Part shown: piece by piece, positions 2,045-63,818 of the stretch
How the letters are laid out: each line of letters opens with the position of its first letter
How positions within the stretch are numbered: the first letter of the stretch is position 1
Translations under genes and position numbers: made by a program
Notes under the pieces: generated by a model
What the model was told of the DNA's origin: nothing
Database searches by the model: none
What the model saw: only the letters and a program-made list of their open reading frames with translations
Source: an uncultured Desulfobacteraceae bacterium
Lineage (GTDB): Bacteria > Desulfobacterota > DSM-4660 > Desulfatiglandales > HGW-15
Direction of reading: 5' to 3'
Length of the DNA stretch: 64,000 bases
Assembly: GCA_964520425.1 (NCBI GenBank)
Contig: CAZFMX010000002.1
Span: 36,809 to 100,808 of the forward strand

Positions 2045-3133
2045 TCAGGAAGGCAACTTGAAATCTTTCTCTCTGAATAGGCGCAAACAGGCGTCTGTTA
2101 CTTCAGAATCATAGAGTCGGCCCCTGTTGCGATTGATCTCCTCTAACGCCGCGTCAAGGCTGAGAGCGGGACGGTAAGGTCTGTGGGAGGCCATGGCTTC
2201 AATTACGTCAGCGACAGCTAGAATCTTTGATTCCAAGAGAATTTCCTTCTCGGTTAATCCCCGAGGATATCCTGAACCATCTAACCTCTCGTGATGCTGG
2301 AGCACAATCTGAGCGATCGGCCAAGGAAAGGCGATATCCTTCAGTATCTCGTAACCCAGCCGGGAATGGGTCTTGATAAGACTGAACTCTATTTCTGTTA
2401 ACCGACCCGGTTTGTTAAGAATTTCCGCGGGGACCGTTATTTTGCCCAAGTCATGGATCATTCCAGCCATGCGGATACCTTCGATCAGTGCTCCATTGAG
2501 ATCCAACTCTTCAGTAATGGCACAGGCAATCTTCGACACACGATTTTGATGCCCGGCCGTATAGGGATCTCTCATTTCAACGGTCATCGCCATAGCTTCT
2601 ACAAATCCATTCATGGCCATTACAAGGCGTTCATTAGCGACTCGAAGGGAATCTGTACGTTCGGTAATCATCGTTTCAAGATTCTTATGGTAGGTCCGAT
2701 TTTCTAACTCCAACTTCCGTCTGCGCAGCGCGCAGGACACATTGAACATCAGCTCGTCGGGACGAAAAGGTTTCACAACATATCCAAAGGCCCCATTTTC
2801 TAGGACATTTTTTGCGACGTCCATGTCGCCTACTCCTGTTATCATGATGACGGCAGTATCCGGATGCTCTTTAGATATGTGTTTTATCAAATCCACTCCC
2901 GATTCACCCGGCATCTTCATATCACAAAGAACCAGATCAAATTCCTGGCCTTTGATTAATGATCTGGCTTCCTCAGCATTTGCGGCTTGAGCATATTTAA
3001 AGCCTTGATTTTCAAGCTTGCGGCACACCAAACGACGCACGCTGGCTTCATCATCAACTACCAGGATCTTTGGAACTTCCTGAACCGTCTCACCAGAAAA
3101 TACATCGCTCAAATCAAGTTTTACACTTGCCAT
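2045..3133 (-). CDS. REC-HD-GYP response regulator (cyclic dinucleotide phosphodiesterase)
   Basis: REC (VVDD, LCDMKMP, VVKPF) followed by TAGHQNRV, HDLGK, HHERLDGSGYP and RPYR motifs. Confidence 0.93.
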   Translation of the reverse strand: MASVKLDLSDVFSGETVQEVPKILVVDDEASVRRLVCRKLENQGFKYAQAANAEEARSLIKGQEFDLVLCDMKMPGESGVDLIKHISKEHPDTAVIMITGVGDMDVAKNVLENGAFGYVVKPFRPDELMFNVSCALRRRKLELENRTYHKNLETMITERTDSLRVANERLVMAMNGFVEAMAMTVEMRDPYTAGHQNRVSKIACAITEELDLNGALIEGIRMAGMIHDLGKITVPAEILNKPGRLTEIEFSLIKTHSRLGYEILKDIAFPWPIAQIVLQHHERLDGSGYPRGLTEKEILLESKILAVADVIEAMASHRPYRPALSLDAALEEINRNRGRLYDSEVTDACLRLFREKDFKLPS

Positions 3134-30520: not shown

Positions 30521-31046
30521 AGAGCCTTTCTGATGATTCGGACCATTGCAAAGGATGATCGAGGAATTGAAAGACCTCAGATTGATAAGAACTTCCTCTT
30601 CGAAACGTGAGTTTAAGGGAATTCTGGATTGAATGTCAAAAAACAAGTCCCCCCATCATACTGTTTGTGTATCTCGCTAGGCGAAGATGGAAGGCTCTTG
30701 AGGTAGAGGAGAGATATTTCCAAGGCGGGCCGAGGGCTGTTTTCTAAAAAGGGGATAAAATTGAGGAAATTTGAGTAGAAGTATCCCCTCCCATCGGCCT
30801 ATCTGACATTTTCAAACCCGTCTGGGATCTATCGCGTCTAAGGCGGGTAAATCACGCCACAGGCGGTCTCGAAATCGAAGAAATGATTTCATCACCATTC
30901 GCTCGCTGTTCAACTGAGGTGTATCTCACATCATTACGTTCTCATTATCCGGATGAATCCAATTTGAACGGAAGTCAAGGGTCTTAAGGGATAGCAGCGG
31001 GCTAAGCGGTCGATGGAACAAGGGTACTCCCTCACAGTAGTTTTGA

Positions 31047-40638: not shown

Positions 40639-40714
40639 TGGCTGGGGTGGGAGGATTCGAACCTCCGAATGCGGGCTCCAAAAACCCGTGTCTTAACCAC
40701 TTGACGACACCCCA
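40639..40714 (-). tRNA. tRNA-Gln(UUG)
   Basis: 76-nt cloverleaf TGGGGTGTCGTCAAGTGGTTAAGACACGGGTTTTTGGAGCCCGCATTCGGAGGTTCGAATCCTCCCACCCCAGCCA; anticodon TTG, U1-A72 pair, encoded CCA; usual ispE-tRNA-prs position. Confidence 0.96.
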
Positions 40715-49625: not shown

Positions 49626-50663
49626 ATGTTTGAACTCATCATTGCTGTAAGCTGTGCCCTCTTGATTTCAGCAGGGTGCTCTCTTTTTGAGGCGGTCCTT
49701 TATTCAACGCCCATGAGGCGCGTTGAAGCGATGGTCCATGAAAAAAAGACGAGCGGAAAAATCTTTAAAGAATTGCGACAAAATGTGGAGAGGCCGATTA
49801 CCGCCATATTATCCCTGAATACCATTGCCAATACAGCCGGTGCTGCTGTCGCCGGATCCGCCGCTACCGCCGTATTTGGGCATCAATGGCTGGGGTACTT
49901 CTCTGCCTTTTTCACCCTGATGATTTTGATCTTCTCGGAAGTCATCCCCAAGACCGCAGGGGTCATCTATGCCAGGCCTCTAGTCTCCCTGGTCGCATAC
50001 CCATTAAAAATTTTAGTTGGCTTGATGACGCCTTTCATATGGCTTTGCAGTCATATCACGGGACTCATTGCCCGAGGAAAAGCTGATGAGTCTGTATCGC
50101 CCAATGAACTTAGAATCATGGCCCAAATTAGCCTCCGGACGGGAGGAATAGAGCACTACCAGAAGAGAGTGATAGAAAATATCTTGTCCTTGGAGGAAAA
50201 AACGGTCGAGAATGTGATGACACCTAGGACCGTTATCTTTTCTCTTAGTGAGCATCTCCCTGTAGAAGTCGCGGCCAAAACGTCAAAAAAATGGGAACAT
50301 AGCCGCTTTCCGGTTTATGACAAGGATACAGAAGATGTGGTGGGCATCGTTCTAACAAAGGAACTGTTCACAGCCTTCTCTCAAGGGGAAAAAGATAGGC
50401 CATTGACCTCGCTTATGAGACCGGCGCGTTTTGTGGTCGAATCGGCCAAACTGAACGACGTTTTTGCGAAGTTTATGGATACCAGGCAGAAACTCTTCGT
50501 GGTCATCGATGAATATGGGGGTCTTTCAGGTCTGATCTCCCTGGAGGACATACTGGAAGAAATACTTGGGAGAGAAATCATTGATGAGTCAGACGAGGTC
50601 ATTGATAAGCGTGAATTGGCGAGACGCCGCCGAAGCACTCTTATTTCCAGATCTGTAACATAG
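49626..50663 (+). CDS. CNNM/DUF21-CBS membrane protein (HlyC/CorC-like)
   Basis: SLFEAVL, ILSLNTIANT, IFSEVIPK, VMTPR, HSRFPV, VIDEYGG..G.ISLEDILEEILG.EI.DE. Confidence 0.9.
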   Translation: MFELIIAVSCALLISAGCSLFEAVLYSTPMRRVEAMVHEKKTSGKIFKELRQNVERPITAILSLNTIANTAGAAVAGSAATAVFGHQWLGYFSAFFTLMILIFSEVIPKTAGVIYARPLVSLVAYPLKILVGLMTPFIWLCSHITGLIARGKADESVSPNELRIMAQISLRTGGIEHYQKRVIENILSLEEKTVENVMTPRTVIFSLSEHLPVEVAAKTSKKWEHSRFPVYDKDTEDVVGIVLTKELFTAFSQGEKDRPLTSLMRPARFVVESAKLNDVFAKFMDTRQKLFVVIDEYGGLSGLISLEDILEEILGREIIDESDEVIDKRELARRRRSTLISRSVT

Positions 50664-50705
50664 TTGCCAAGCCTTTTCTGTCCAGGGTCCTTTTTAGAAA
50701 GGAAT

Positions 50706-50898
50706 AAAGGTTATGGTGTCTTTTCTCCGATTCCGAGTCTCACGGCCTGGTTATTTCAGGACGTTAGAGCCGGGGTGAACCCTCCCCCCTCCGCTGTTCC
50801 CCTCGCTTTCACTCGGGGCCAGGGGGTCCCCCATTCTCTAACATCCTGAAATAACGAAGGCCTCCCAACAGTCACTACGAAAAGACACCATGACCTTT
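50706..50898. repeat. Nested-palindrome element, family AB, copy A (193 bp)
   Basis: Outer arms 50706-50725/50879-50898 and inner arms 50750-50769/50836-50855 (19 of 20 Watson-Crick pairs each); loops homologous to 62659-62847. Confidence 0.8.
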
Positions 50899-51030
50899 GC
50901 CGGATTTAAAAAGATCTTGTAGCTAGCGTGCTCTTTAAACGGAAGAACTGATGTTACAGGATTTGAGGCCTGCTGATTGAGATTTCATGGCGTAAGTCTC
51001 TCCTGCAGAGTCTTGAAAGCATACAGAGGA

Positions 51031-51936
51031 ATGGAACAAGAAATCATAGCTCTTATTCATGATAAAGGCCCTCTCACTGGTTCAGAGATAATGGAGTCTG
51101 TTGGCGGTGACGGCTTAATACTCTGGCGAACCTGCAGGCTCTCCAAGGACTTGGTGATTCGAATCGTTGGGACGAGGTATATGAGATTGGACCGCCGGAT
51201 CAAGGGTTTTGCCCGTCTTTCCCCTTCCATCTTAAGAGAATTCCTTACGTATTCGGTGATTGGTCTTGCCAACCAAGGCGACTCGCTGGATCAAAAAGCC
51301 CAAAGTGTCGCATCACACATTGAGACGATCAGCAAGGCAAAATCAGAGCTTGCCTACAGCATTGTCTCCACCCTGGTCGACAAACTGGGATCTGAAATCC
51401 CGATTCAGGAACAAGTCTGTTTCATCATCGGAGGGGATATCGTCTATAACATGGCCCACGACGTCCCCCGTCCCGAGCGTAGCACCGGAAAACTGGTCAA
51501 TGGTTCGGATATGGATCTGATTGTGGTGGTGGGGGACGACTTCCCGAAGGAATTAGTTGAAAGGATAGACGAAGCCATCTACAAAGAGAAACACAGGCTC
51601 TTGATCACTCCCCACTTGAGGGAGGAGATCGATTATATCGTAAAAGACCTGAACCGCATTAGAGAGCAAATCAAGTTTGACACCTTCAAACATATGGTCG
51701 CCTGTAAACTCCTTCATGAAGGGGCGTTTCTCTACGGCAGTGGGCAGGTCTTTCACAGGATCAGAGTCATACTGAAAGAGCATGGGGTCATACAAAAGCT
51801 GAATGCCCTGGAGGAAAAGGCCAAAGACTTCCGAAGACATTCAGAAAGCTTTCTCCTGCACGAGACCGGTCCGAAGATTCAGGGAGAGAGTCAATACCTC
51901 TTTTATCCCACCGAGGAGTCTGAAGAATTTGAATGA
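51031..51936 (+). CDS. Uncharacterised protein with Pol-beta-like nucleotidyltransferase motifs
   Basis: IGGD...GSDMDLIVVV and a later EIDYIV acidic motif; long clean ORF (opens at 50977, ATG at 51031). Confidence 0.65.
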   Translation: MEQEIIALIHDKGPLTGSEIMESVGGDGLILWRTCRLSKDLVIRIVGTRYMRLDRRIKGFARLSPSILREFLTYSVIGLANQGDSLDQKAQSVASHIETISKAKSELAYSIVSTLVDKLGSEIPIQEQVCFIIGGDIVYNMAHDVPRPERSTGKLVNGSDMDLIVVVGDDFPKELVERIDEAIYKEKHRLLITPHLREEIDYIVKDLNRIREQIKFDTFKHMVACKLLHEGAFLYGSGQVFHRIRVILKEHGVIQKLNALEEKAKDFRRHSESFLLHETGPKIQGESQYLFYPTEESEEFE

Positions 51937-52056
51937 GGGCTGAAAACGGAGGGAGACAGTCTGAAAGGACTTCGCAAGCCCCCTTTGCTTGCATGAAACC
52001 AGTGGCAATAGGGATGTTTAGAGGGGCTAATGAGCTAGGAACGTTCTGGCTGTCTC

Positions 52057-53430
52057 TCACCGTTTGACAAGCCGGCTCTGAATCCCCTTTGACGCCAGTT
52101 CAATATGCTCTTTTTCAGCGTCCTCCTTATAATAAAAAGCTCCGCTAAAAAGAAGAGATTCACCGTTATCTCCTTCAATTACATAGGGACAGTACCCCAA
52201 CTCTACAAGGGATAGGTTCTTTTCTGTGAGTTCTTCATCCGAACTGAAAAGGCCTATGAGGTTAGCATAAAGGACATACCTGGATCTCCCCTCAGTTATC
52301 TGATTTTTCTCGATAAATGCGTTTACTTCGTCTTTTGTCTGGAAATACCCGGCCAAGACCCTGTACCATACACCCTTCTCCCCAAGATCGACTCTCACCC
52401 AATATGGAGACAATCCCTTCTTTTTAAAAATGGAAATGGCTTCCTGAATGCGATCTATGTTTTTATAGGAGCCCAAATAGATGGAATAAGGATATGATTT
52501 TCTTTCATCCCTCTGAAACATCTCGGTCTTTGCCGCCTCGTCACTATGAGTCGACCTGGAATGTTGAGGATTTGCAGGAGAAACCTCCTGTTTTGCGGTG
52601 ACAATGGTTTCTTTGGGTGTCTCAGAAACAGGGTTATCGGGCTTTTTGGGGGTCGACCCTTCAATCATCCCCTTTTCCGGTCCGATTGGCGGTGGTTCAG
52701 GAGTTTTGTTCTCATTATCCAGTTTTACGGTCTCAACTGCCGCTGCCGAGGTCGTTGGGATGGTGACATCCTGCTTCACAGGGGCAGGATTCTCAATCAT
52801 TTCGTTTTTCGCCAACGCGATCGCCTGATCGTCATCAAATAGGTATAATGGCGCTAAACGAGTTCCCAAAAAGGTCAAAAGAACGCCCATAACAAAAGGC
52901 AATCCAATATTTAAGGTCGTCAAACTAAAAATGGACCTTCTTTGAGGATGGCTACTCACCTCTTGGGGGAGAACAAAACCTTCAGAAACAGCAGGGCTTT
53001 CTCTTTTCACAACATGGCTTTGGGAAATCCTTTTATCCCTGTTTCTCTGAATGGCAGGTACTGACCTTTTTACAGAGACACTCTTTTGAGGTTTCTCTTG
53101 TACATGGGCTTTGATCCTGGAACTCTTTATAGTGGTGTTCCCGGACACAGCAGGCTTCCTGACTTGAGTCTTCCTTTTTTTTGTCCTGGCCTCTATTTCG
53201 GAATTAAAAGGCCGCATCTGCCTCCCTCGATGATTTATTGGTATCCGCTTTTGAGCGTTTTTCATCGGTCTGACGGCTGCGCTACTCTCGCTTGTTGCTG
53301 ATTTAGGGCGTGTTTTCTCTTTGACGCGCCTAATCTTGGATTCCTTTGATTCTTCAAACAGGCTTGCCAGCAGTTCTATCGTATTAGGAGACCCCTTGCT
53401 CTCTTCATGGGCATTATCAATGTTGTTCAT
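52057..53430 (-). CDS. Single-TM protein with two C-terminal SPOR-like domains
   Basis: Basic low-complexity N-terminus, TM LNIGLPFVMGVLLTFLG, YSIYLGSYKN..YWVRVDLGEKGVWYRVLAG and YANLIG repeats. Start at ATG 53430 after an AAGGA SD. Confidence 0.82.
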   Translation of the reverse strand: MNNIDNAHEESKGSPNTIELLASLFEESKESKIRRVKEKTRPKSATSESSAAVRPMKNAQKRIPINHRGRQMRPFNSEIEARTKKRKTQVRKPAVSGNTTIKSSRIKAHVQEKPQKSVSVKRSVPAIQRNRDKRISQSHVVKRESPAVSEGFVLPQEVSSHPQRRSIFSLTTLNIGLPFVMGVLLTFLGTRLAPLYLFDDDQAIALAKNEMIENPAPVKQDVTIPTTSAAAVETVKLDNENKTPEPPPIGPEKGMIEGSTPKKPDNPVSETPKETIVTAKQEVSPANPQHSRSTHSDEAAKTEMFQRDERKSYPYSIYLGSYKNIDRIQEAISIFKKKGLSPYWVRVDLGEKGVWYRVLAGYFQTKDEVNAFIEKNQITEGRSRYVLYANLIGLFSSDEELTEKNLSLVELGYCPYVIEGDNGESLLFSGAFYYKEDAEKEHIELASKGIQSRLVKR

Positions 53431-53455
53431 TCGGTTATCCTTCTTTTCAAGAATG

Positions 53456-53740
53456 TCATAAACAAAGACCCGATTGCTGCTGTTTCTCATCGAATTGCCT
53501 GTGGGTGATCCTTCGTTCAAAGCGGTGGCCGCTCCTCAGATCAGAAAAATTTCTGTTATATAACGCTTTTCTCCGATCCTTGCCATTTCTCCGGTCCCGG
53601 CTTAACCCATAGTCTTTTCCAAGCCTTCTCTCTGGAATATGATTTGAATAGGCAAAACGCCTGCGATCTTGTCCTGAACGTCTGCCGCCATTATCCGTGT
53701 GAAATGATCTTAACATTCCGATATTTTTATACATAACCAT
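53456..53740 (-). CDS. Small Arg-rich protein with (D/E)RR repeats
   Basis: RRSGQDRRR, ERRLGKD, DRRNGKDRRK, ERR; AGAGG SD. Confidence 0.7.
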   Translation of the reverse strand: MVMYKNIGMLRSFHTDNGGRRSGQDRRRFAYSNHIPERRLGKDYGLSRDRRNGKDRRKALYNRNFSDLRSGHRFERRITHRQFDEKQQQSGLCL

Positions 53741-53785
53741 ATACCTCTTTCCGTATACTACTGACGGGCATCGTCGATAAGATGC

Positions 53786-53965
53786 CTATTGTATCACTCC
53801 CCAAGAACTCATTTTTTTGTTGTTATAGATATCTTCCTTATAAATCTGGAGCCACGATCTTCTTTCACCCATGAAAACACTTCGCAGCTTTCTCAGTGAT
53901 ATCTTGACCTTCTTCCTTTCTCCGGAACAGTCCGGGAATGAATTCCGACATTCTGTTTCCGACAT
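53786..53965 (-). CDS. Possible small basic protein (degenerate ERR-type)
   Basis: ORF open from 54025; best SD (AGAGG) precedes ATG 53965; contains SGERKK and GERRS. Confidence 0.4.
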   Translation of the reverse strand: MSETECRNSFPDCSGERKKVKISLRKLRSVFMGERRSWLQIYKEDIYNNKKMSSWGVIQ

Positions 53966-54061
53966 TCTTCCTCTTTTAGGATCCGCTATGATCTTCATGG
54001 CTTTCATCTTATTGATCTTTGTCACAAAGTAAAATGTTGCTGCCCTTCTGACTCATCTACC

Positions 54062-54077
54062 AGCAAGCAGTGTGCCA
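54062..54077 (-). promoter_or_regulatory. Sigma54 (-24/-12) promoter
   Basis: Minus strand TGGCACA-ctgc-TTGCT, an essentially perfect consensus. IHF-like TTTCAA-ccag-TTA at 54117-54129; palindrome ATGAAATTTCAT at 54188-54199. Confidence 0.8.
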
Positions 54078-54273
54078 AGAAGGGCGGATGAGAGATAAAT
54101 CGATTTATAGATATAATTTCAACCAGTTATACAACAAGCAGAAATGCGTGACAGGACTGTAAAGAAAAAGCTTCCCTTAGAAAGGAAATGAAATTTCATA
54201 TACTGGTAAGAATTTACTCAGATTTCGGGGTAGAAAAACGAAAAGAGGAGGCAGGAGAACCAAAACGGTTCTC

Positions 54274-57200
54274 TTATCTTTCAACGAGTTGGCTCTTGAT
54301 TCCCTTTGTATTCAAATCAAGCTGCGCTTTCTCTGCATCGGCCTTTTGATAAAACGCCCCCGTGAAGAGGTGAGATTTGCCATCAGATGCCTCAATGACA
54401 TATGGACTGAATTCCAGATTCAAAAGAGAAAGGCGCATCCGGTCAAGTTCCTCTTCCGAACTGTAGGTTCCTATGAGATTGGCATAGGTTGTGCGCCTGG
54501 ACTCTCCATCCGCTATTTGATAGTTATTGATGAATGTCTCGGCCTGGTCCTTGGTTTGGAAACAGCCGATATAGACCCTGTACCATATCCCTTTCTCTCC
54601 AAGGTCGGTCTTCACCCAGTAAGAAGCCCCCTTTGTTTTCAATTCGGAAGCCGCTTTCCGGGCACGATCAAGGTTTTTGTAGGAGCCGACATAGACAGAA
54701 TATGGATAGGAGAATTCAGGGGCAGCCTCAGGTATAACCCCTTGTTTCTTATGGGTTTTCACTTGAGGCGCAACATTCTTGACCGAACCCGAACCTACCA
54801 ATGCACCCGGTTCTATCTTCCGGACTTCGGCATCTACAAGCTGCCGCTCTTTGACGTATTCCTCTGCCTCGCTCCTGGTTTCGAATTGTCCTGTAAAGAC
54901 CCTGTACCATATTCCCTTGTCTCCCAGATCCACTTCTTGCCAATAGAGAGATGACAGGCCGTTCTCGTTATATTTGGAAATGGCCTTTTCTGTACTTTTA
55001 AGGGTGCTATAAGAGCCAAGGTATACCGAAAAGGGATGAGATATCGATGTCTTTATCTGATTTGACTCAGCTTTTACAGAAGCGTCACCGGGCGGAGGGG
55101 GGGTTGCGGGTTCAGGGGGTTGGGGCTGGACTTCTAGGTCAGTAGTGATAAGGGTTCTCTTCGGTGTCGTGGAGGTCGTGTTCTGATCTAGAGGAGAAGA
55201 TCCCTCAACACTCTCTTTCATCGCCAGGATGGTTGGAGGTTCAGAGGTCGAAGGTTTTACCTCCGGGATAACGGCCTTAACGGTCTCCTTCTGAGTCTCA
55301 GGACCTGCATTTCGCTTCCTGGGAACATGAGCACGAACGATTTCCTTCTCTACTGAAGCAGGAGTGGAAGGTTGAATTCCTTGTCTTGTAACTGGGGACT
55401 TCTCTCTCAAAGTCTTAGGGGTAACTCCCTGCTTCTTGGGAGAAGAGACCTCAACAGACTTGTCACTCATCAGCTTCTGCGCTTGCTCATGCTTGAAGAA
55501 ATCAAGGGGTGAATATCGGATACCCAAAATGATTGCCAGAATTCCAAATAGGATAAGGGGCAGCCCAATTCTTATGACCTTTGAGCGGTGTCCGGATCTC
55601 CTTATAAGCTGGAGATCCTCCTCAGTAAGTGCAACACCTTCCTCCAGGTCCGCGGGTTCCTCTTTCTCAGGTTTTACGGATTCAGAAACCCTCTCAAATT
55701 CATCCTCTCCCTCTGGCACGGATCCTTCTTCAGCTTCTGGTTTATGATGATGCTCCTCCTCATCCGTGCTGACTTTAGAATCCTCGGAGGACATTAAACT
55801 GGGCATGAGTATTTCTTTTAATCGAGGCTCTTCCTTTGCCGGCTCTGATGAGTCCGAAAGAGGCTCTATCTCCATGCCAACCGCCTCAGAAGTCCTTTCT
55901 ATATCTTCCTTCTTGTCTTCAAGTATCGGCCTCTCCTTGTCTTCTAGTATATGATGGACTTCAAACACATTTGCCTCGATCCCGGAAGTCTTGGAGAGTA
56001 TCGGTGTAAATGCGGCAGGTTTCTCTTGGGATAGGGTCTTCTCCTTCGTCATCTCGGCATTCGCAGAATCTGAAGGCTGCTCCTCTACAAAATCGATGGA
56101 TTGAGGAGCTTCCTCAACATCTTCTTTCCTGTCTTCTGGTATTGACTCCTCTTCATATTCAAATGTGGATTCAGGATATATTTCTTGCTTGCTTGCTTCA
56201 GGCAAGGAGTCCTCTATGATTATTGCACTGGGGGCTGCAGGTTTCTCTTGAAATAGAGGGCCTTCTTCTGCTGCTCCATCAATCCCTTCAATATCTGCAG
56301 AAACCTCTTCCTTTAGATCGTCGCTGTCAAGGGCTATTCCAACATCGACCTCTTCTTCCTCAGATGCCGAGCTTTCCCCAGCGGATGCTTTTTCGTCTCC
56401 TTGTTTTTCACTCCCTTCAAGCGCGGAAATCATCGTACTGAGAGCGGATTTCTCCAAAAGCTCCGTGATCTCCCCATCCGCCCCGGTGATGCTCTCAATA
56501 TCTGAGGAAGTCTCTTCCCTGGAATCATCACTATCAAAAAAAATCTCAATACCGGTATCCTCTTCCTCAGGTACCGGACTCTCCTCAGCCGATGCTTTCT
56601 TGTCTCCTTTCTTCCCACTCACTTCGAGTTCAGAAATCATGGAATCAAGTGTGGTTTTTTGCAGAACCTCCGTGATATCCTCATCCGCCCCGGTAATGCT
56701 CTCGATATCTGAGGAAGTCTCTTCCCTGGAATCATCACTATCAAAAAATATCTCAACACCGGCATCCTCTTCCTCAGGTACCGGACTCTCCTCAGCCGAT
56801 GCTTTACCGTCTCCTTTCTTCCCACTCATTTCGAGTTCAGAAATCATGGAATCAAGTGTGGTTTTTTGTAGAACCTCCGTGATATCCTCATCCGCCCCGG
56901 TAATGCTCTCGATATCTGAGGAAGTCTCTTCCCTGGAATCATCACTATCAAAAAATATCTCAACACCGGCATCCTCTTCCTCAGGTACCGGACTCTCCTC
57001 AGCCGATGCTTTACCGTCTCCTTTCTTCCCACTCATTTCGAGCTCGGAAATCATGGAATCAAGTGTGGTTTTTCCCATGATCTCTGTGATTTCCTCGTCT
57101 GTTCCGGGAATTACCTCAATGTCCGCAGGAGGCCTGCTCCGGTCATCCTCCTTAGAAGTTTTCTCGCCACCATCTTTTTTTATCTTGAGTCGATACCTTT

Positions 57201-57795
57201 CCTCAGGTGACAGTTCGTGATAGCGGGTATTTCTGCTCCCTTTGATTCCTGCAGCCATGGAGATCATGGAATTAAGAACAGACTGATTCAGGGATTCGGT
57301 CCTCTCATCACCCGATCCGGTGATTGTCTTGGAAGGGGGGGGCTCATTCTTTGGGCCACCAGGTCTAACAATCCTCTTACCGCCACTCTCACTGGGTTTG
57401 AAACCCGGTTTGGACCCAGCCGCTGATTTACGGCGTAACTTCTGACGTCTTTGTTCAATCCTGGAGTCCTTTTGAGCTACTGAACCGGGCAGGGGTCTTT
57501 TCGGGGGAAGGGTTTTGCTCTGGGTTGCTCCGGTACTCTTTACTGATGGCGAAGGACGCCTCAGTTTCTGGGAAGTAGTCTGGGAAGTTGCCTTACCCTG
57601 ATCTCTTCTCTCTCTCGATACGACCCTCTTCTTCACCACCGACTTGGGGCGGATTCTCCGGCGGACTACCTTAATTTCGGAGCTCTTTGTATCCTTGAAA
57701 AGGCTTTCCAACAACGACGCAGTGTCGTCGCCAGGATCGTATCTTCCCTCAGAGTCATCCTTCTTATCGTTCATTTGCTTCTCTGTAGTTGGCAA
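54274..57795 (-). CDS. Large single-TM protein with acidic tandem repeats and three C-terminal SPOR-like domains
   Basis: Basic N-terminus, acidic 69-aa repeats, TM IGLPLILFGILAIILG preceded by RRSGHRSK, and three SPOR-like units (FSVYLGSY, YSVYVGSY, YANLIGTY). Confidence 0.85.
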   Translation of the reverse strand: MPTTEKQMNDKKDDSEGRYDPGDDTASLLESLFKDTKSSEIKVVRRRIRPKSVVKKRVVSRERRDQGKATSQTTSQKLRRPSPSVKSTGATQSKTLPPKRPLPGSVAQKDSRIEQRRQKLRRKSAAGSKPGFKPSESGGKRIVRPGGPKNEPPPSKTITGSGDERTESLNQSVLNSMISMAAGIKGSRNTRYHELSPEERYRLKIKKDGGEKTSKEDDRSRPPADIEVIPGTDEEITEIMGKTTLDSMISELEMSGKKGDGKASAEESPVPEEEDAGVEIFFDSDDSREETSSDIESITGADEDITEVLQKTTLDSMISELEMSGKKGDGKASAEESPVPEEEDAGVEIFFDSDDSREETSSDIESITGADEDITEVLQKTTLDSMISELEVSGKKGDKKASAEESPVPEEEDTGIEIFFDSDDSREETSSDIESITGADGEITELLEKSALSTMISALEGSEKQGDEKASAGESSASEEEEVDVGIALDSDDLKEEVSADIEGIDGAAEEGPLFQEKPAAPSAIIIEDSLPEASKQEIYPESTFEYEEESIPEDRKEDVEEAPQSIDFVEEQPSDSANAEMTKEKTLSQEKPAAFTPILSKTSGIEANVFEVHHILEDKERPILEDKKEDIERTSEAVGMEIEPLSDSSEPAKEEPRLKEILMPSLMSSEDSKVSTDEEEHHHKPEAEEGSVPEGEDEFERVSESVKPEKEEPADLEEGVALTEEDLQLIRRSGHRSKVIRIGLPLILFGILAIILGIRYSPLDFFKHEQAQKLMSDKSVEVSSPKKQGVTPKTLREKSPVTRQGIQPSTPASVEKEIVRAHVPRKRNAGPETQKETVKAVIPEVKPSTSEPPTILAMKESVEGSSPLDQNTTSTTPKRTLITTDLEVQPQPPEPATPPPPGDASVKAESNQIKTSISHPFSVYLGSYSTLKSTEKAISKYNENGLSSLYWQEVDLGDKGIWYRVFTGQFETRSEAEEYVKERQLVDAEVRKIEPGALVGSGSVKNVAPQVKTHKKQGVIPEAAPEFSYPYSVYVGSYKNLDRARKAASELKTKGASYWVKTDLGEKGIWYRVYIGCFQTKDQAETFINNYQIADGESRRTTYANLIGTYSSEEELDRMRLSLLNLEFSPYVIEASDGKSHLFTGAFYQKADAEKAQLDLNTKGIKSQLVER
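56270..57126 (-). repeat. Intragenic 207-bp (69-aa) tandem repeat, about 4 copies
   Basis: Units 56863-57069, 56656-56862 and 56449-56655 are nearly identical; a diverged fourth unit lies below and a partial unit above. Shadow ORFs recur at exactly 207-bp spacing (56618/56825/57032). Confidence 0.95.
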
Positions 57796-57857
57796 GGAAG
57801 TGACTGCACTCTACTTTAAAAACGCAACGAGCGCTAATCCCGGTTCTTAGGAGGTAC

Positions 57858-58553
57858 TCAGACTGCCTTGAAATCCTTGAGGGGTTCATCAAACTCAATA
57901 CCGACCACATGAATATCTTCACCATCCATGCTGCGTTTGGTTTTATGTCTCGCAGTCCCCTTTACCTTGACGATAGTGTAGGCACCGTAAAGCGTGATAT
58001 CTCTAAGCTTGTCTCCCACTTCTATCATATCAAGAATGTCCATATATTTATCCCGCACCAAAATTCCAAGCCCATATGCCGTGCAATCAAAAATCTCCAG
58101 TTCATAGGTCCTGTCTTTTCGGGATTCGTCTTTTACTTTCACGACGACACTAACGAAATCCGGTATTTCATCACCTCTTCGGTCTCGTCTTCGTTTTTCT
58201 CTGATGTCTATGGATTCCGGAAAACTGGCGACAAAGCCTTCGTCCGTTTCTTCACCAGGAACACTCAGACATCGCGTGTTAAAGCGGCAAGAGGTCTCTC
58301 TTAGTGAAAATAGGGCCATCATACGTGAGCCTGACTGACAAAGGGCATTTCCTTCCTCGGGGCTCAGCCTTTCAAAAACTAGGGTGGATTCTCCTTCAGT
58401 GCCTGAAGATGTGTCTCCGTAATTGACCTCCGCAATCCTTGAAACAAATGGTTGCTCATGCCCTTCAATCTTAATGGTGATTTCTGTTTTACGGGCGATT
58501 AGGTATTCAATGGTCCCTATGATCTTTTGTCTGGCGTCTGAGGATTGAGACAT
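57858..58553 (-). CDS. PilZ-domain protein (YcgR-like two-domain layout)
   Basis: REKRRRDRR (RxxxR) followed by DCTAYGLG (D-x-S/T-x-x-G) and C-terminal VGIEF. Confidence 0.75.
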   Translation of the reverse strand: MSQSSDARQKIIGTIEYLIARKTEITIKIEGHEQPFVSRIAEVNYGDTSSGTEGESTLVFERLSPEEGNALCQSGSRMMALFSLRETSCRFNTRCLSVPGEETDEGFVASFPESIDIREKRRRDRRGDEIPDFVSVVVKVKDESRKDRTYELEIFDCTAYGLGILVRDKYMDILDMIEVGDKLRDITLYGAYTIVKVKGTARHKTKRSMDGEDIHVVGIEFDEPLKDFKAV

Positions 58554-58976
58554 GAACACTTATGTAGGGGGAACCGACAGTATCTTACAATCCCGTACCT
58601 CTTCACGAAGAATGAAGTACTGTTTTTTCTCCCCCTCCATCTCCTTCTTCCTTAATAGTTCAATACTAAAGACATTTCAACGAATTGCTGGTAATAACTA
58701 AAAGGCCTGAAAAGACTCAAACAAAGCCACTCCTCAACACCAGGCCAGACTTCTGTGTGAGGGCTCAAAACTTACGCAATCAAAAATCCTCGTCTATTAC
58801 TATCCCTTTATCACGCTAAATTAAGAAAAGCTTGAAGAACAAAGACTATCATATCGGTGCATTTCACCAACTCATCATATTCCGAATACCAATATATGAT
58901 AATACAATAACTAGGAATATTCGTCAAGAATGTTCAGTGGTTATTTGTATTTCAGAGGGATTCCCGAGGCGTCTCT

Positions 58977-61265
58977 TTAAAGGATGATATCATTTATTCT
59001 CTGACTAAGATCGGGGGAGTAACTGAGGACCTTTCCGTCGACTCCCAAAACAGGCACCACTCCCATGAGGGAGTTTGTAACAAAGACATGGGTAGCTGTA
59101 AAAAGTCCGTCAGGATCTACTCTTTCTTTTTGGACCGAGTAACCCCAATCGAGGAGGAGTTTACATACTTTTTCTTCCATAATCCCCGGCAGGACATGTG
59201 GCGATACGGGCCGAACAACCTTCTTGCCTGTGATCAGCAGAATATTGGCCGTATTGGTCTCAGAAATACTCCCATCGGTATTCATGATCAACGCTTCGTC
59301 AACACCTTGGTTTTTCGCCCATTTTCCGGCCAAATAGTAATACAGGTAGTTGAGGGTCTTGTGATCTGCGAGTGGTGAATAACGGGGGTAGGGATAGGTT
59401 GCGAGCCATAATCCTGGTTTGTTCGTCCCTGACAAGCGGTGGATGTACGGCCTCGCGGTCAAAATGACCTTGTGATCAAATGGAGGCTTTTCCCGCCCCC
59501 CCCACGCGGCAATCACCTTGACCGCCACAGTCTCTTTTTCATACCTGTTTTCATGGATCACCTGATCAATAATTTCTCTCCACGAAAGATCAGGCTCCGG
59601 GCGATCAAAAAGGGCTTGCCATGTACGAGCAAACCGAGCCATATGGGCATCCAGGTGTTTAGCCTCCCCTTGATCGACCCGTATGGTTTCGAAGAATCCA
59701 TACCCGTATTGAAACCCAAGATCAGTTATCTTTATGACGCCCTGATCAAATGGATGGATGGACCCGTTCACCCAAGCCACTTCTCCTGCACGTTCTCTTC
59801 TGCCTTTTTCTCCAAATACACCCATGAGGGTCTTACCCTTTTGCAACGTCTCGTCATACTCATCCGAAGGCTCAGAGTCATAGACAATACCTCCTCCCAC
59901 GGAAAAAAGCATGTTCCCATCACAAATCGTCGCCGTGCGAATAGCAATAGACAGGTCCAAGGTATCATGGAAACTCACATATCCTATTGAACCGGTATAG
60001 ACGTGACGCCTGTGTGGCTCCAGTTCGTCAATAATTTCCATGGCTCTTATCTTGGGACAACCGGTGATCGATCCCCCTGGAAACGTTGCCTTCAGTAGGT
60101 CTACGGAATCGCAAGTGCCGGATAGTGTTCCTTCAACAATCGAGACTAAGTGGTACACATTCTCATATACTTCTACCCTTTTGTGTTGTCTCACCCGGAC
60201 GGAACCTCCCTCGCAAACCCTTCCCAAATCGTTTCGTAAAAGATCAACGATCATGGAAAGCTCTGCATCATCCTTTCTGCTTTCCTCCAATTCAATGGCG
60301 AGGGCCCGGTCTTCGGCTTCTGTCTCTCCTCGGGGCCTGGTTCCTTTGATGGGTCTGGTCTCAACAGACCCTTGCTGCCTCTTCAGAAATCTCTCTGGTG
60401 ATGTCGAGATAATCTGGTGATCATGAGCATGGATGTAAGCAAAAAAAGGAGCCGGATTTGCATCATAAAGGGAAAGGAAGAGGCTGAAAGGATCCCCATC
60501 AAAGTCTGTTTGAAACCGCTGTGACAGATTCACCTGATAGACATGGCCGGAAGTGATATAGGCCCTGATCTTTTCGATCTGAATCATGTAATCAACCCTG
60601 TCAAAATTGGAGCTAAACCCACGCAGACTTCCCTTAAAGGGGCCTCGAATCAAAGGTCTTGTATCAAGGACGGATCGAAACCATTCCAAATCGTCATTCA
60701 GGCTTTCTTGCCCATCACATACACGATTCGAAACAGAAAGCCATGTGTGCCCGCTTCTTTTGTCCTGGGTCACAATGACCGACGGGGCGAAAAGGCAGAT
60801 ATCCGGAAGGCCAAGGTCATCAAACGATGTACGGGGGAGATTCTCCAGGAAATCCTTTAGATCATATGAAAAGTACCCCATAAGGCCGGACCCAATAGGG
60901 ACCGGTAGGCCGGGATCTTCCATGTGGAAGGTTTTGAGTATCATACGAAGCGTGTCAAAAGGATCTGCTTCGAATCGAATAACCTGCTCTCCGATGGTAA
61001 GGACCATCTGACGGCCACGGCCCAAGAAGCCAAACCACGGTTTTGTGCCAAGGATATGATATTGAGCACAATCGAGTTCACCTCCGCTCAGAAGGACGAC
61101 CGTCCCGGGGATTGAAGCAAACCGGCAAGAAAAATCCTGAAAGGGAGCGCCCGGATTAATCTCCTCCAGGTGAATATTCCCGATCTCCCCCGCTATTTTT
61201 CTCAGGTCATACACGGTGCACCCTCTTACTGCAGGAATTGAGATGCCTCCCAGCCATCCTCTCAC
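58977..61265 (-). CDS. pabB: Aminodeoxychorismate synthase component I fused to ADC lyase (PabB-PabC)
   Basis: YQVNLSQR, SPERFL, TRPIKGTRPRG, MIVDLLRNDL, FPGGSITGCPK, GGGIV; then a class IV PLP domain (YGYGFFETI, HKTLNY, ETNTAN, LPGI). GTGA overlap with the pabA stop. Confidence 0.93.
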   Translation of the reverse strand: MRGWLGGISIPAVRGCTVYDLRKIAGEIGNIHLEEINPGAPFQDFSCRFASIPGTVVLLSGGELDCAQYHILGTKPWFGFLGRGRQMVLTIGEQVIRFEADPFDTLRMILKTFHMEDPGLPVPIGSGLMGYFSYDLKDFLENLPRTSFDDLGLPDICLFAPSVIVTQDKRSGHTWLSVSNRVCDGQESLNDDLEWFRSVLDTRPLIRGPFKGSLRGFSSNFDRVDYMIQIEKIRAYITSGHVYQVNLSQRFQTDFDGDPFSLFLSLYDANPAPFFAYIHAHDHQIISTSPERFLKRQQGSVETRPIKGTRPRGETEAEDRALAIELEESRKDDAELSMIVDLLRNDLGRVCEGGSVRVRQHKRVEVYENVYHLVSIVEGTLSGTCDSVDLLKATFPGGSITGCPKIRAMEIIDELEPHRRHVYTGSIGYVSFHDTLDLSIAIRTATICDGNMLFSVGGGIVYDSEPSDEYDETLQKGKTLMGVFGEKGRRERAGEVAWVNGSIHPFDQGVIKITDLGFQYGYGFFETIRVDQGEAKHLDAHMARFARTWQALFDRPEPDLSWREIIDQVIHENRYEKETVAVKVIAAWGGREKPPFDHKVILTARPYIHRLSGTNKPGLWLATYPYPRYSPLADHKTLNYLYYYLAGKWAKNQGVDEALIMNTDGSISETNTANILLITGKKVVRPVSPHVLPGIMEEKVCKLLLDWGYSVQKERVDPDGLFTATHVFVTNSLMGVVPVLGVDGKVLSYSPDLSQRINDIIL

Positions 61266-61939
61266 ACCGATCCCGAGGTATCAATAGAGAGTCTTTGGCA
61301 ATGTGTCCCGTCAGGGTAGGAGTCGATACGATCCTCCGGCAGTGGTTTTACTTTGCAGGAGTTCAGAGATCCCAGCCCAAGAAAATTTTCCACCACCAAA
61401 AAACCGTACTCCGTGAGAAAGCTTTCAGGATGGAACTGGACACCATGAAGAGGAAACGAGGGATGCGATATTCCCATGACCACCCCGTCCTGGCTCCGGG
61501 AGGTAACCAGTAGCTCATTCCCCTTCAACCGAACAACAAGTGAATGGTAGCGGGCCGCAGCAAAAGGAGAAGGAATGCTCTTGAAAAGCCATTGTTGACG
61601 ATGTTCAATGAGACTTGTCTTCCCATGCATGGGAATGGGGGCCCGAACCGTTTTCCCGCCGAAGGCCTCATTCATGCATTGCATTCCCAGGCACACCCCC
61701 AAGATAGGGACTTTGCTGCAAAAGGCCTTAATCAATTGAACAGATATCCCCGCATGGGCCGGGTCTTTAGGTCCCGGACTGATAAGGATGTAATCAGGAT
61801 CATGCTCTTCGACCTCTTCTATTGATATTTTGTCACATCGATGCACCTCAATATCAAGGTCATAGTGCATGAACATCTGGACCAAATTGTAGGTAAAGGA
61901 ATCGTAATTATCGATGACCAGCAGCTTTGCCGATTTCAT
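61262..61939 (-). CDS. pabA: Glutamine amidotransferase PabA/TrpG
   Basis: IDNYDSFTYNL, SPGP, LGVCLGMQ, RYHSL, QFHPES; GAGGTG SD. Confidence 0.93.
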   Translation of the reverse strand: MKSAKLLVIDNYDSFTYNLVQMFMHYDLDIEVHRCDKISIEEVEEHDPDYILISPGPKDPAHAGISVQLIKAFCSKVPILGVCLGMQCMNEAFGGKTVRAPIPMHGKTSLIEHRQQWLFKSIPSPFAAARYHSLVVRLKGNELLVTSRSQDGVVMGISHPSFPLHGVQFHPESFLTEYGFLVVENFLGLGSLNSCKVKPLPEDRIDSYPDGTHCQRLSIDTSGSV

Positions 61940-61948
61940 TTACACCTC

Positions 61949-61981
61949 AAAAAAAGCCACCCGGACACGAGTCTGGGTGGC
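61949..61981 (-). terminator. Intrinsic terminator-like hairpin immediately upstream of the pabA SD
   Basis: Minus strand GCCACCCAGAC-tcgt-GTCCGGGTGGC-TTTTTTT-GAGGTG-taa-ATG. Confidence 0.7.
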
Positions 61982-62012
61982 TTTCGCCTATGGCATAACT
62001 CAGTTAGATGGG

Positions 62013-62041
62013 AAGATATAGGATTTACCCCTATGCGTCAA
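62013..62041 (-). promoter_or_regulatory. Sigma70 promoter of the pab leader
   Basis: Minus strand TTGACG-17 bp-TATCTT. Confidence 0.6.
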
Positions 62042-62090
62042 GGATTTTACTCTAAAAAACAACAGGGAGGTAAAAGAGCCTAGTGCTCTA

Positions 62091-62352
62091 TACCATATAT
62101 TCACGGATCAAGTAGAAGATGAGGCATAGACTATTCCCTCAAGACGATATCTCAGAAAGAAATTCCACAGAATCCCGCCGTGATCTGAACTTTGAGGGAG
62201 TATGCCCCGGGGTGCGCCCCGGGGGGTACTCCTCCAAACCTATCGCAGAATGTATAGCTCGCTTAAAAGGAACAGCCTCTTAAACCCTTAAAGTTCAGAT
62301 CACCTTCACTGGCCCCTATCAATATCGTCTTGAGGGAATAGTCCATGCCTTA
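62091..62352. repeat. Nested-palindrome element, family C, copy 1
   Basis: 31-bp arms 62120-62150/62322-62352 (29 matches), 19-bp arms 62180-62198/62285-62303 (18 matches) and an internal GC hairpin; homologous to 63861-64000. Confidence 0.85.
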
Positions 62353-62658
62353 TTGCACATTAGAATAATCTGGAATTCTGTTAAGAACCTCGAATATCAA
62401 TCCAAGTAACTATAATAGGAGGCACTAGGATTCCCGGAGAACCTCTCGAACGTTCATTCCGCACACATCTCTTGACTTTCTCACCTTTTTTGAAGAGATT
62501 CAATTAAGAATCCCGGGAACTAAAAAATAAGGCTCCTTAAAAGAATTTGTGGATTCATATATGATATGGAAAAACAGAACAAGTTGAAGATTCAAGGATT
62601 TTTGATGATTATGTTGGACCCGTTATTCCAGTCCAGAATTCTAAGTAGATATTTGGGA

Positions 62659-62847
62659 AAGGTGGCGAAATTTTTTCTTCGGTTCCAAGGCTCCCGGACT
62701 GGTCTTTTCTACGACTTATCTGCGAGGGAAACGCCCCCTCCGCTGTCCTCCCGCTCCTTTGATGCGTGAGTCAGGGCTTCCCCCACAGATAAATCGTGAA
62801 AAGACGGCGGCCTCCCACCAGTCACTCCGAAAAGACCTCGCCACCTT
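62659..62847. repeat. Nested-palindrome element, family AB, copy B (189 bp)
   Basis: Outer arms 62659-62677/62829-62847 and inner arms 62702-62722/62786-62805; loops 18/24 and 19/23 identical to copy A. Confidence 0.8.
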
Positions 62848-62948
62848 ACCAGAATTTCCACTTTGTTCTATTATTCCGCTTTACATATAGACCCACAGAT
62901 TCTCGTGAGGGGCCAAAAAATGGAAAGGACCCGGTTTTACCTGAAAAA

Positions 62949-63818
62949 ATGAAGAGATTACTTATTACAGGCGCCAGCGGCTTTTTGGGGTGGAACGTCA
63001 GTCGAATAGCAAAATCAGATTGGACCGTGTTCGGCACCTCCCTCTCCCACCCCTTGTATATCCAAGATGTCACCCTCATAACAGTGGATCTGACTCTATT
63101 CAGAGACCTCAAACAGCTTTTTGATGATGTCAAACCAGATGCTTTAATCCATACGGCTGCTATGGCAGATCCGAACTTCTGCCAACAAAACCGCACTATA
63201 TCCCACAGTATCAACACGAAAGTCCCCATAAACATCGCTGGTCTCTGTTCAGAGCTTAAGATTCCGTGTCTTTTCACGTCTTCAGATCTAGTCTTCGATG
63301 GGTTGACTCCACCCTATTCGGAAGACGATGAACCCTCGCCGACTTCTTTCTATGGGGAGCAGAAGGCCATGGCGGAAACCGGCATGAAGGATCGATATCC
63401 TTCGACGGTAATCTGCCGCATGTCCCTGATGTTTGGCGATCCAGGACCGGTAGCCACAAGTTTTATTCAGCCCATGCTTCATGCCATTCAATCAGGCAAG
63501 ACTATTAACCTCTTTACCGATGAATTCAGGACACCTGTGAGTGGGAGAAATGCGGCAAAGGGGCTTTTGATTGCTTTAAATAAACGGCCTGGAATGATTC
63601 ACCTTGGAGGGCTTGAGAGAATTTCTCGCTATGAATTCGGGAAACTGCTGTGCGAAAGTTTTGGATTGTCAAATGCGCAATTAAACCCTTGCCGACAACA
63701 AGACCTGAAGATGTCCGCACCCAGACCCCCTGATGTCTCCCTTGATATTTCAAAGGCCCGAGCCCTAGGATATAATCCTAAATCGCTCAAAGAAGAGATG
63801 GAAGCACTGAAGGCTTGA
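62949..63818 (+). CDS. RmlD-like (dTDP-4-dehydrorhamnose reductase family) NAD(P)-dependent oxidoreductase
   Basis: ITGASGFLG, IHTAA, SSDLVFDG, YGEQK, FTDEFRTP, RPPDVSLD; real start at ATG 62949. Confidence 0.88.
   Translation: MKRLLITGASGFLGWNVSRIAKSDWTVFGTSLSHPLYIQDVTLITVDLTLFRDLKQLFDDVKPDALIHTAAMADPNFCQQNRTISHSINTKVPINIAGLCSELKIPCLFTSSDLVFDGLTPPYSEDDEPSPTSFYGEQKAMAETGMKDRYPSTVICRMSLMFGDPGPVATSFIQPMLHAIQSGKTINLFTDEFRTPVSGRNAAKGLLIALNKRPGMIHLGGLERISRYEFGKLLCESFGLSNAQLNPCRQQDLKMSAPRPPDVSLDISKARALGYNPKSLKEEMEALKA

Follow-up and report, generated by a model that had tools for sequence, protein, structure and literature searches.

What kind of genetic element folds as a long hairpin whose stem arms diverge between copies while its loops stay the same? 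The question is raised by a 64,000-nucleotide stretch of a contig from an uncultured Desulfobacteraceae bacterium (hereafter the window, numbered from its first letter), in which a sequence-only reading had pointed out two elements of ~190 nt, here called copies A and B (Table 1), and had assigned them to an undescribed family of structured RNAs or single-stranded DNA (ssDNA) recombination sites. The analyses reported here lead to another answer: the two elements are very probably the inner hairpins of an ISL3-type MITE (miniature inverted-repeat transposable element), a non-autonomous transposon of 300–385 bp from sediment Desulfobacterota. Mobile DNA of this sort is ordinary; what is unusual is how well the internal fold has been kept.

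Coordinates, alignment, and folding agree that both copies lie where they had been reported and fold as had been described, with outer and inner stems of ~20 bp each, separated by an internal loop, and with ~65 nt in an apical domain. In the pairwise alignment of the two copies, shared blocks are found in both strands of the internal loop and in the apex, whereas the stem arms diverge. Copy A folds with −91.7 kcal/mol (z −7.2) on the plus strand and −101.2 kcal/mol (z −6.4) on the minus strand, and the core of copy B with −81.4 kcal/mol (z −5.5) and −100.8 kcal/mol (z −6.5), respectively; in none of these four cases did a shuffled control fold as well as the real sequence. The two loop motifs have exactly 2 occurrences in the 64 kb window versus 0 expected. 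Because the folds surpass their shuffles and the motifs appear only at these two places, the two-copy observation is real and not due to chance. The internal bubble also exists, but its proposed size of 24/23 nt is too large, since in the consensus fold five extra pairs (GGCCU/AGGCC) lengthen the inner stem and leave an open bubble of ~18/16 nt.

The motif of the 3′ loop served as the key in the search for further copies, and loci from public genomes, metagenomes, and viral contigs are designated below by L-numbers. The scan of public genomes returned 7 loci, four of which are contigs of one Deltaproteobacteria metagenome-assembled genome (MAG) and together hold at least 5 copies, and the scan of metagenomes returned 58 further loci, mainly from marine or estuarine sediment. 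Altogether, ~64 distinct copies (7 MAG and 58 metagenome loci) lie dispersed beside unrelated metabolic or housekeeping genes; the window holds three (A, B, and the fragment C), and a blastn search of the plasmid collection gave no match. The orientation of the element relative to neighboring genes is random, with 25 gene starts versus 28 gene ends on its right side (13/6 and 10/9 in a stricter set). The position of both copies upstream of a plus-strand gene, as noted in the sequence-only reading, therefore holds in the window without being characteristic of the family.

Similarity between copies does not stop at the base of the outer stem. It runs on for ~70 nt (~50 nt in the truncated copy A) and ends in GTACTCATTAACCGGA[AT]GAACC, with the inverse on the other side, so that the true ends are found 50–130 nt outside the ~190-nt core, as terminal inverted repeats of 22–24 nt. 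Both repeats, GGTTC[TA]TCCGGTTAATGAGTAC and its inverse, are present in 29 copies, and the subfamily of copy B carries GGCTCCTCACAAGAATTTGTGGGT instead. Complete copies measure 304–313 bp in the standard form, 335–364 bp with apical insertions, and 384 bp in the case of copy B, and no open reading frame (ORF) is contained in the element. Directly outside the GG...CC ends stand 8-bp direct repeats, such as AAGACTAA, TTGTCATT, ATCAAATA, ACCGTTTT, and CTTTCTAT, with AAATTGCT, TTTAAAAG, GTTAAAAA, and ATCAAAAA as further examples. Among 27 distinct insertions, the two flanking 8-mers agree at 8/8 positions in nine, at 7/8 in seven, and at 6/8 in four, whereas none of the control 8-mers taken one step outward reaches 6/8; the target sites are 75% A+T. 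It is this combination that defines a MITE: a small element without an ORF, dispersed in many copies, with terminal inverted repeats and a duplication of fixed length. The earlier argument that the element is not a MITE, since MITEs conserve their terminal repeats, fails because the base of the internal hairpin had been mistaken for the end; the real ends are conserved inverted repeats with 8-bp duplications. A cis-regulatory leader, suspected from conserved downstream sequence and nearby gene starts, was likewise rejected, because the same sequence recurs inverted on the other side with target duplications and gene orientation is random.

Folded from end to end, the whole MITE forms a rod (L045, −165 kcal/mol, z −13.6; copy B, −160.7 kcal/mol, z −9.7), and the element described at the outset is the middle part of this rod.

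The ends also lead to the partner of the MITE. A terminal-repeat scan of viral contigs yielded one contig beginning inside a gene whose last codons, ...KRQAYGFRDMEYFKLRLYHLHTQRYSLTG-stop, run into the repeat, and the same 22-mer terminates the transposase gene in L066, L067, L068, L070, L075, and L076, with the stop codon inside the repeat. This right end of an insertion sequence (IS) and the MITE ends of L045 are identical at 22/22 positions. The peptide ending in the repeat matches Pfam PF01610 (DDE_Tnp_ISL3) only over the last 17 positions of the model (224–240/240, E 0.018); protein searches returned hundreds of fragments of PF01610 homologues from Syntrophobacteraceae, Desulfobacteraceae, and other Deltaproteobacteria MAGs, the longer ones all annotated as PF01610. 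Related full-length elements were found in L071–L074; the one in L071 is 1287 bp long, has GGTTCATCCGG... at both ends, and carries two PF01610-bearing ORFs. Eight base pairs is the classical duplication length for ISL3 (PMC7643977). With repeats identical to the end of an ISL3-family IS, the proposal of an undescribed family is only partly supported, a match to an IS end being the very finding that the sequence-only reading had named as speaking against it. The MITE and the ISL3 elements with PF01610 transposases thus share identical 22-nt ends, an AT-rich 8-bp duplication, and a terminus starting with GG; they have only these 22 nt in common, however, and the core covariance model finds nothing in the IS loci, so the MITE is not a simple internal deletion of the IS. 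The shared ends suggest that an ISL3 transposase mobilizes the MITE.

ISL3-type transposase genes akin to the partner are split at 826–861 in L071 (also in L072 and L073) and at ~470–480 in L078. In L071–L073 the frame changes at a nine-A run, CTAAAAAAAAATCC, between ORFs of 201 aa and 193 aa, and L078 has an in-frame TAG; the split could be due to programmed slippage or recoding, to decay, or to a homopolymer sequencing error.

The nature of the ends bears directly on the idea of an ssDNA recombination site, be it of the HUH (IS200/IS605, REP/RAYT), IS110, tyrosine recombinase, or attC-like kind. A hairpin with conserved unpaired bases and strand polarity would suit such a site, but these systems have no 8-bp duplications or terminal inverted repeats, whereas the MITE has both, and its ends belong to a DDE element of the ISL3 family. 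No HUH, IS110, or tyrosine recombinase gene was found beside any copy examined, and we regard this explanation as highly improbable.

A free-standing gene for a 6S-like small RNA, a ~190-nt rod with a central bubble mimicking an open promoter, was the other candidate suggested by shape. Like 6S RNA (RF00013), the core is ~190 nt long and forms a rod with a large central internal loop; unlike 6S RNA, it is mobile, has no conserved promoter of its own, and occurs in many copies per genome, some of them truncated, with terminal repeats and target duplications. The stems of 6S RNA are bulged, in contrast to the perfect 20-bp stems of the MITE core. At the gathering score, the Rfam search of the whole window returned only a tRNA gene (40642–40714, minus strand, 61.5 bits), and with E values up to 10 both strands of copies A and B returned only chance fragments of long non-coding RNAs and no RF00013. 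The assignment to the 6S family is refuted, and a 6S-like gene of any kind is barely credible here. What survives of the proposed new RNA or ssDNA-site family is the fold, the covariation, the lack of an Rfam match, and the preference for the minus strand; its interpretation as a free-standing RNA gene or as a site of HUH, IS110, or tyrosine recombinases does not, since the element has terminal repeats, duplications, and ISL3 ends.

The closest known system is an ISL3-type MITE such as that of Microcystis aeruginosa, which is 187 nt long and has GGCTCTTCG ends and 8-nt duplications (PMC11448079). Both elements are non-coding, fold as stem-loops, are flanked by 8-nt duplications, and would be mobilized in trans by an ISL3 transposase (PMC11448079). 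The terminal repeats of the Microcystis MITE start with GGCTCTTCG and those described here with GGTTCTTCCGG and GGCTCCTCAC, both matching ISL3-family ends (PMC11448079). Apart from the different host phylum, the MITE of the window differs in its length of 300–385 bp, in its two-storey internal hairpin with conserved bubble and apex, in having several exchangeable stem types, and in having two end types on one core. In its behavior it resembles Correia elements (CREE) of Neisseria, ERIC, RUP, and bcr1 of Bacillus, which are dispersed intergenic repeats with terminal repeats, target duplications, and very stable long stem-loops when transcribed (PMC3184786, PMC2229807, PMC10969869). MITEs typically fold into long stem-loops, and compensatory changes keeping the RNA fold have been reported for bcr1 (PMC3184786, PMC10969869). 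These families differ from the present one in their transposase partners and duplication lengths (5 bp in bcr1); no sequence similarity between them and the MITE was found, and the MITE has no Rfam match.

The upkeep of the internal fold was examined in 30 distinct cores (the two window copies and 28 from MAGs and sediment metagenomes), from which a minus-strand consensus was built. In this set, 97.1% of cells are paired and two-sided changes occur in 26 of the 57 pairs; 0/500 shuffles were as good, and sliding the partners by 1–3 columns reduced pairing to at most 51%. The claim that the stems covary while the loops are conserved thus holds far above both controls. The polarity toward the minus strand, which had been called slight, is clear: consensus energies are −60.5 kcal/mol (minus strand) and −39.4 kcal/mol (plus strand), and the two long stems contain, read on the plus strand, 76 A.C versus 21 G.T cells, which corresponds to G.U on the minus strand. 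A covariance model built on the minus strand scores 185–226 bits there versus 31–57 bits on the plus strand (copy A, 212.3 versus 52.8 bits; copy B, 184.6 versus 31.5 bits). The structure is therefore kept, and better on the window minus strand.

Two facts point to selection on this structure. The best-conserved parts are the non-palindromic loop strands and the apex blocks, which are common to subfamilies with unrelated terminal repeats and subterminal regions, and the mismatch sites hold the same polarity in stem types whose neighboring bases all differ. Such conservation might mean that MITEs with at least two end types carry the core as cargo and that it functions as a structured RNA (or as ssDNA resembling one), transcribed from the G-rich strand (minus in the window). 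The invariant motifs GGAGG, GGGAGG, and CGGAA, exposed in its loops, would serve as binding sites for a protein or for the ribosome, e.g., as a CsrA-type or anti-Shine-Dalgarno decoy, and the stems would be only scaffolds, free to change while pairing lasts. Consistent with this, the loop and apex blocks are (nearly) invariant in the 30 copies while stems and even terminal repeats change, and the subfamily of copy B has only the core in common with the other copies. The minus strand has both the far higher model scores and a consensus fold better by 21 kcal/mol, several sites varying between G.U, G.C, and A.U without ever breaking on that strand, and the apex tolerates extra inserted hairpins, as do the variable regions of RNAs. 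Set against these points, promoter and terminator scans of both window copies and two complete reference copies gave no site that recurs from copy to copy (three promoter-like sites in copy B are absent from its relatives), a by-eye check for sigma-54 and IHF consensus found no convincing match, no RNA run was found to contain the locus, and orientation to neighboring genes is without bias. Short forms lacking the inner stem and apex show an identical deletion junction at different loci (L008, L050, L063), so they have spread without the inner hairpin, and the single copies L031, L060, and L051 decay freely. The polarity comes mostly from ~3 ancestral sites, and if these were the sole informative ones, all three would agree with a probability of 0.25. 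For the 3′ loop the degree of conservation is overstated, since the copies were found by means of this motif, which does not apply to the 5′ loop and apex. On balance, we consider a functional RNA cargo unlikely.

Covariation may also have arisen without structural selection, through mutational upkeep of long palindromes (intrastrand template switching and gene conversion between arms) and swaps of whole hairpins between copies, all copies being young. Each stem occurs in 3–4 types only, and the effective sequence number of the model is 1.27. Modules have been exchanged: L021 and L026 join the outer stem of one type to the inner stem of another, and L051 has outer arms from two different types and a broken stem. 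These mosaics fit recombination within the conserved loops, because such exchange moves both arms together, and with so few lineages and with arms exchanged as modules the independent covariation events are few. The unrepaired mismatches in the individual copies L031 and L060 and the lack of a conserved promoter- or terminator-like site are also in agreement with mutational upkeep. Template switching gives Watson-Crick-perfect arms, however, and fails to explain mismatches of the same position and polarity in stem types with changed neighbors, nor does mutational upkeep account for conservation being highest in the non-palindromic loop strands. It is a possibility to which we attach appreciable weight, although less than even. 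Regardless of its fate, the few stem types, mosaics, mismatched copies, short forms, ~3 polarity sites, random orientation, and lack of a conserved promoter or terminator lower the weight of covariation as evidence of selection.

The ISL3-type MITE is the reading that we prefer, and several observations weigh against it. We did not recover any full-length IS flanked on both sides by the exact MITE repeat; since assemblies break in this repeat, the search yielded only 3′ relics and fragments at contig ends. Copy A lacks its left end and the duplication of copy B is imperfect, so mobility is evident for the family rather than for these two copies themselves. Across subfamilies, conservation is higher in the loop and apex than in the terminal repeats, which are entirely different in the copy A and copy B types; the needs of transposition do not account for this. 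The consistent G.U polarity hints at a strand-specific function beyond the MITE label.

For the ISL3-type MITE, we propose the following mechanism. A full-length IS elsewhere in the genome with the same ends would supply an ISL3-family DDE transposase in trans, which would recognize the 22–24-nt terminal inverted repeats of either type and insert the MITE into AT-rich intergenic DNA via an 8-bp staggered cut, giving rise to the 8-bp duplications. The entire MITE forms one long palindrome-like rod, with each stem in few types. Recombination between copies inside the conserved loops would exchange both arms of a stem together, and multiplication seems to have been confined to lineages whose hairpin is intact; these two processes would produce fully covarying stems and conserved loops in any pairwise comparison. 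The hairpin has most likely been kept since lineages with an intact rod multiply or persist better, and, as far as we can guess, it does its work when single-stranded, on the G-rich strand (minus in the window). RNase III requires about two helical turns. Read-through transcripts of the MITE would form perfect duplexes of at least 20 bp, which could be processed, could make transcripts more stable, or could terminate them, in the manner of MITEs from other bacteria (PMC3184786, PMC10969869).

The family is variable in several further respects. One or two extra GC-rich hairpins, e.g., GCCCGCCGCCAAAAAACCGGCGGGC, are inserted in the apex of L022, L033, L053, and L061 (+30 nt) and of L024, L055, L054, and L038 (+35 to +115 nt); such copies score 157–208 bits with the covariance model, with the exception of L038, which has the largest insertion and scores 59.6 bits. 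A more divergent core copy at a contig end (L018, 7034–7140) has an altered 3′ loop, TCCTTCCACCACCAGTCACCTCAGAAAAG; the family thus extends beyond the reach of the search motif. In L013 and L048 (~1300–1400 and 2930–3010), a short-form core lies between another inverted pair, GATCACGGGG ... CCCTGTGATC, which hints at a third end type with the same loop motifs. Two MITE copies, inserted one within the other or side by side, stand head to head at L001 (2371–2640) and L019 (1–140), where the inverted 3′ part of one subfamily abuts a complete copy of another. We also considered the inner hairpin as a second MITE nested in a short one, given the direct repeat of 8 nt, G[TG]CTCCCG, on its two sides; the same sequence would result from a deletion between these repeats, and no solitary inner hairpin was found in 384 kb.

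The features of the three window copies are collected in Table 1.

Table 1. MITE copies in the window and their parts (window coordinates; a dot marks features without an assigned strand).
Feature	Position	Strand	Basis
Copy B, complete MITE, 384 bp, subfamily with GGCTCC... ends	62531–62914	.	Alignment with L020, L021, L056, and L038 fixes both ends
Copy B, left terminal inverted repeat GGCTCCTTAAAAGAATTTGTGGAT	62531–62554	+	Inverse of 62891–62914
Copy B, right terminal inverted repeat ACCCACAGATTCTCGTGAGGGGCC	62891–62914	+	Alignment with subfamily copies
Copy B, core hairpin (second copy of the sequence-only reading)	62659–62847	−	Folding
Copy B, outer arms	62659–62677 and 62829–62847		
Copy B, loop strands	62678–62695 and 62806–62828		
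Copy B, inner arms	62702–62722 and 62786–62805		
Copy B, apex	62723–62785		
Copy A, MITE without its left ~55 nt, including the left terminal repeat	50698–50949	.	86% identity to positions 56–305 of the complete 306-bp copy L058
Copy A, core hairpin (first copy of the sequence-only reading)	50706–50898	−	Folding
Copy A, outer arms	50706–50725 and 50879–50898		
Copy A, loop strands	50726–50743 and 50855–50878		
Copy A, inner arms	50751–50769 and 50836–50854		
Copy A, apex	50770–50835		
Copy A, degenerate right terminal inverted repeat GTGCTCTTTAAACGGAAGAACT, 4 mismatches to GTACTCATTAACCGGAAGAACC	50928–50949	+	Terminal-repeat scan and alignment
Copy C, fragment: left terminal repeat, subterminal region, outer 5′ arm, and start of the 5′ loop strand; remainder missing	30868–30959	−	89% identity to positions 3–93 of the complete copy L045 and terminal-repeat match

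The 8-mers flanking copy B, AAAAATAA (62523–62530) and AAAAAATG (62915–62922), match at 5/8 positions, or at 7/8 with a 1-nt shift, and its A-rich target duplication appears to be decayed or ambiguous; in L021, which belongs to this subfamily too, the 8-bp duplication is exact (AAAACTTT). The right end of copy B is 35 nt from the ATG (62949) of an RmlD-like gene, and the homology of copy A ends, in the alignment, ~35 nt beyond the stop codon (50663) of a CNNM/CBS gene. The genes around copies A and B are housekeeping genes (CNNM/CBS, SPOR proteins, PilZN, PabB, glutamine amidotransferase, and RmlD-like reductase), with no recombinase among these window neighbors. In the source sediment metagenomes, the MITE parts are covered 10–20x as deeply as the flanks, and the cores are where contigs break off; contigs from four sediment runs, which over 50000–63500 break in the repeats, showed no joint skipping a whole copy (an empty site).

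Other elements lie close to copy B. Just to its left, at 62119–62353, there is a second, unrelated MITE-like palindrome. Its terminal inverted repeats are 32 nt long (ATGAGGCATAGACTATTCCCTCAAGACGATAT and the inverse thereof, with 94% complementarity), and it has a GC-rich center and a further inverted repeat of 19 nt nested inside (62180–62198 and 62285–62303). In the source metagenomes, depth over 61726–62627 is 7–8x that of the flanks, and many contigs end at 62119. The glutamine amidotransferase gene is followed directly, at 61953–61984, by what looks like a bidirectional intrinsic terminator, a GC-rich inverted repeat of 14 bp (AAAGCCACCCGGAC ... GTCTGGGTGGCTTT) with a loop of 4 nt and with A and T runs on its flanks.

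For the study of sediment Desulfobacterota, these results mean that MITE repeats break their metagenome assemblies and may be mistaken for small-RNA genes or riboswitch-like leaders; with the ends, the 8-bp duplication, and the ISL3 partner known, the repeats can be masked and counted. Insertions such as copy B, lying so close ahead of a gene start, can rewire promoters. If the core were indeed a functional RNA, unlikely as we hold this to be, MITEs would be vehicles that distribute a structured regulatory or decoy RNA to many Desulfobacterota loci.

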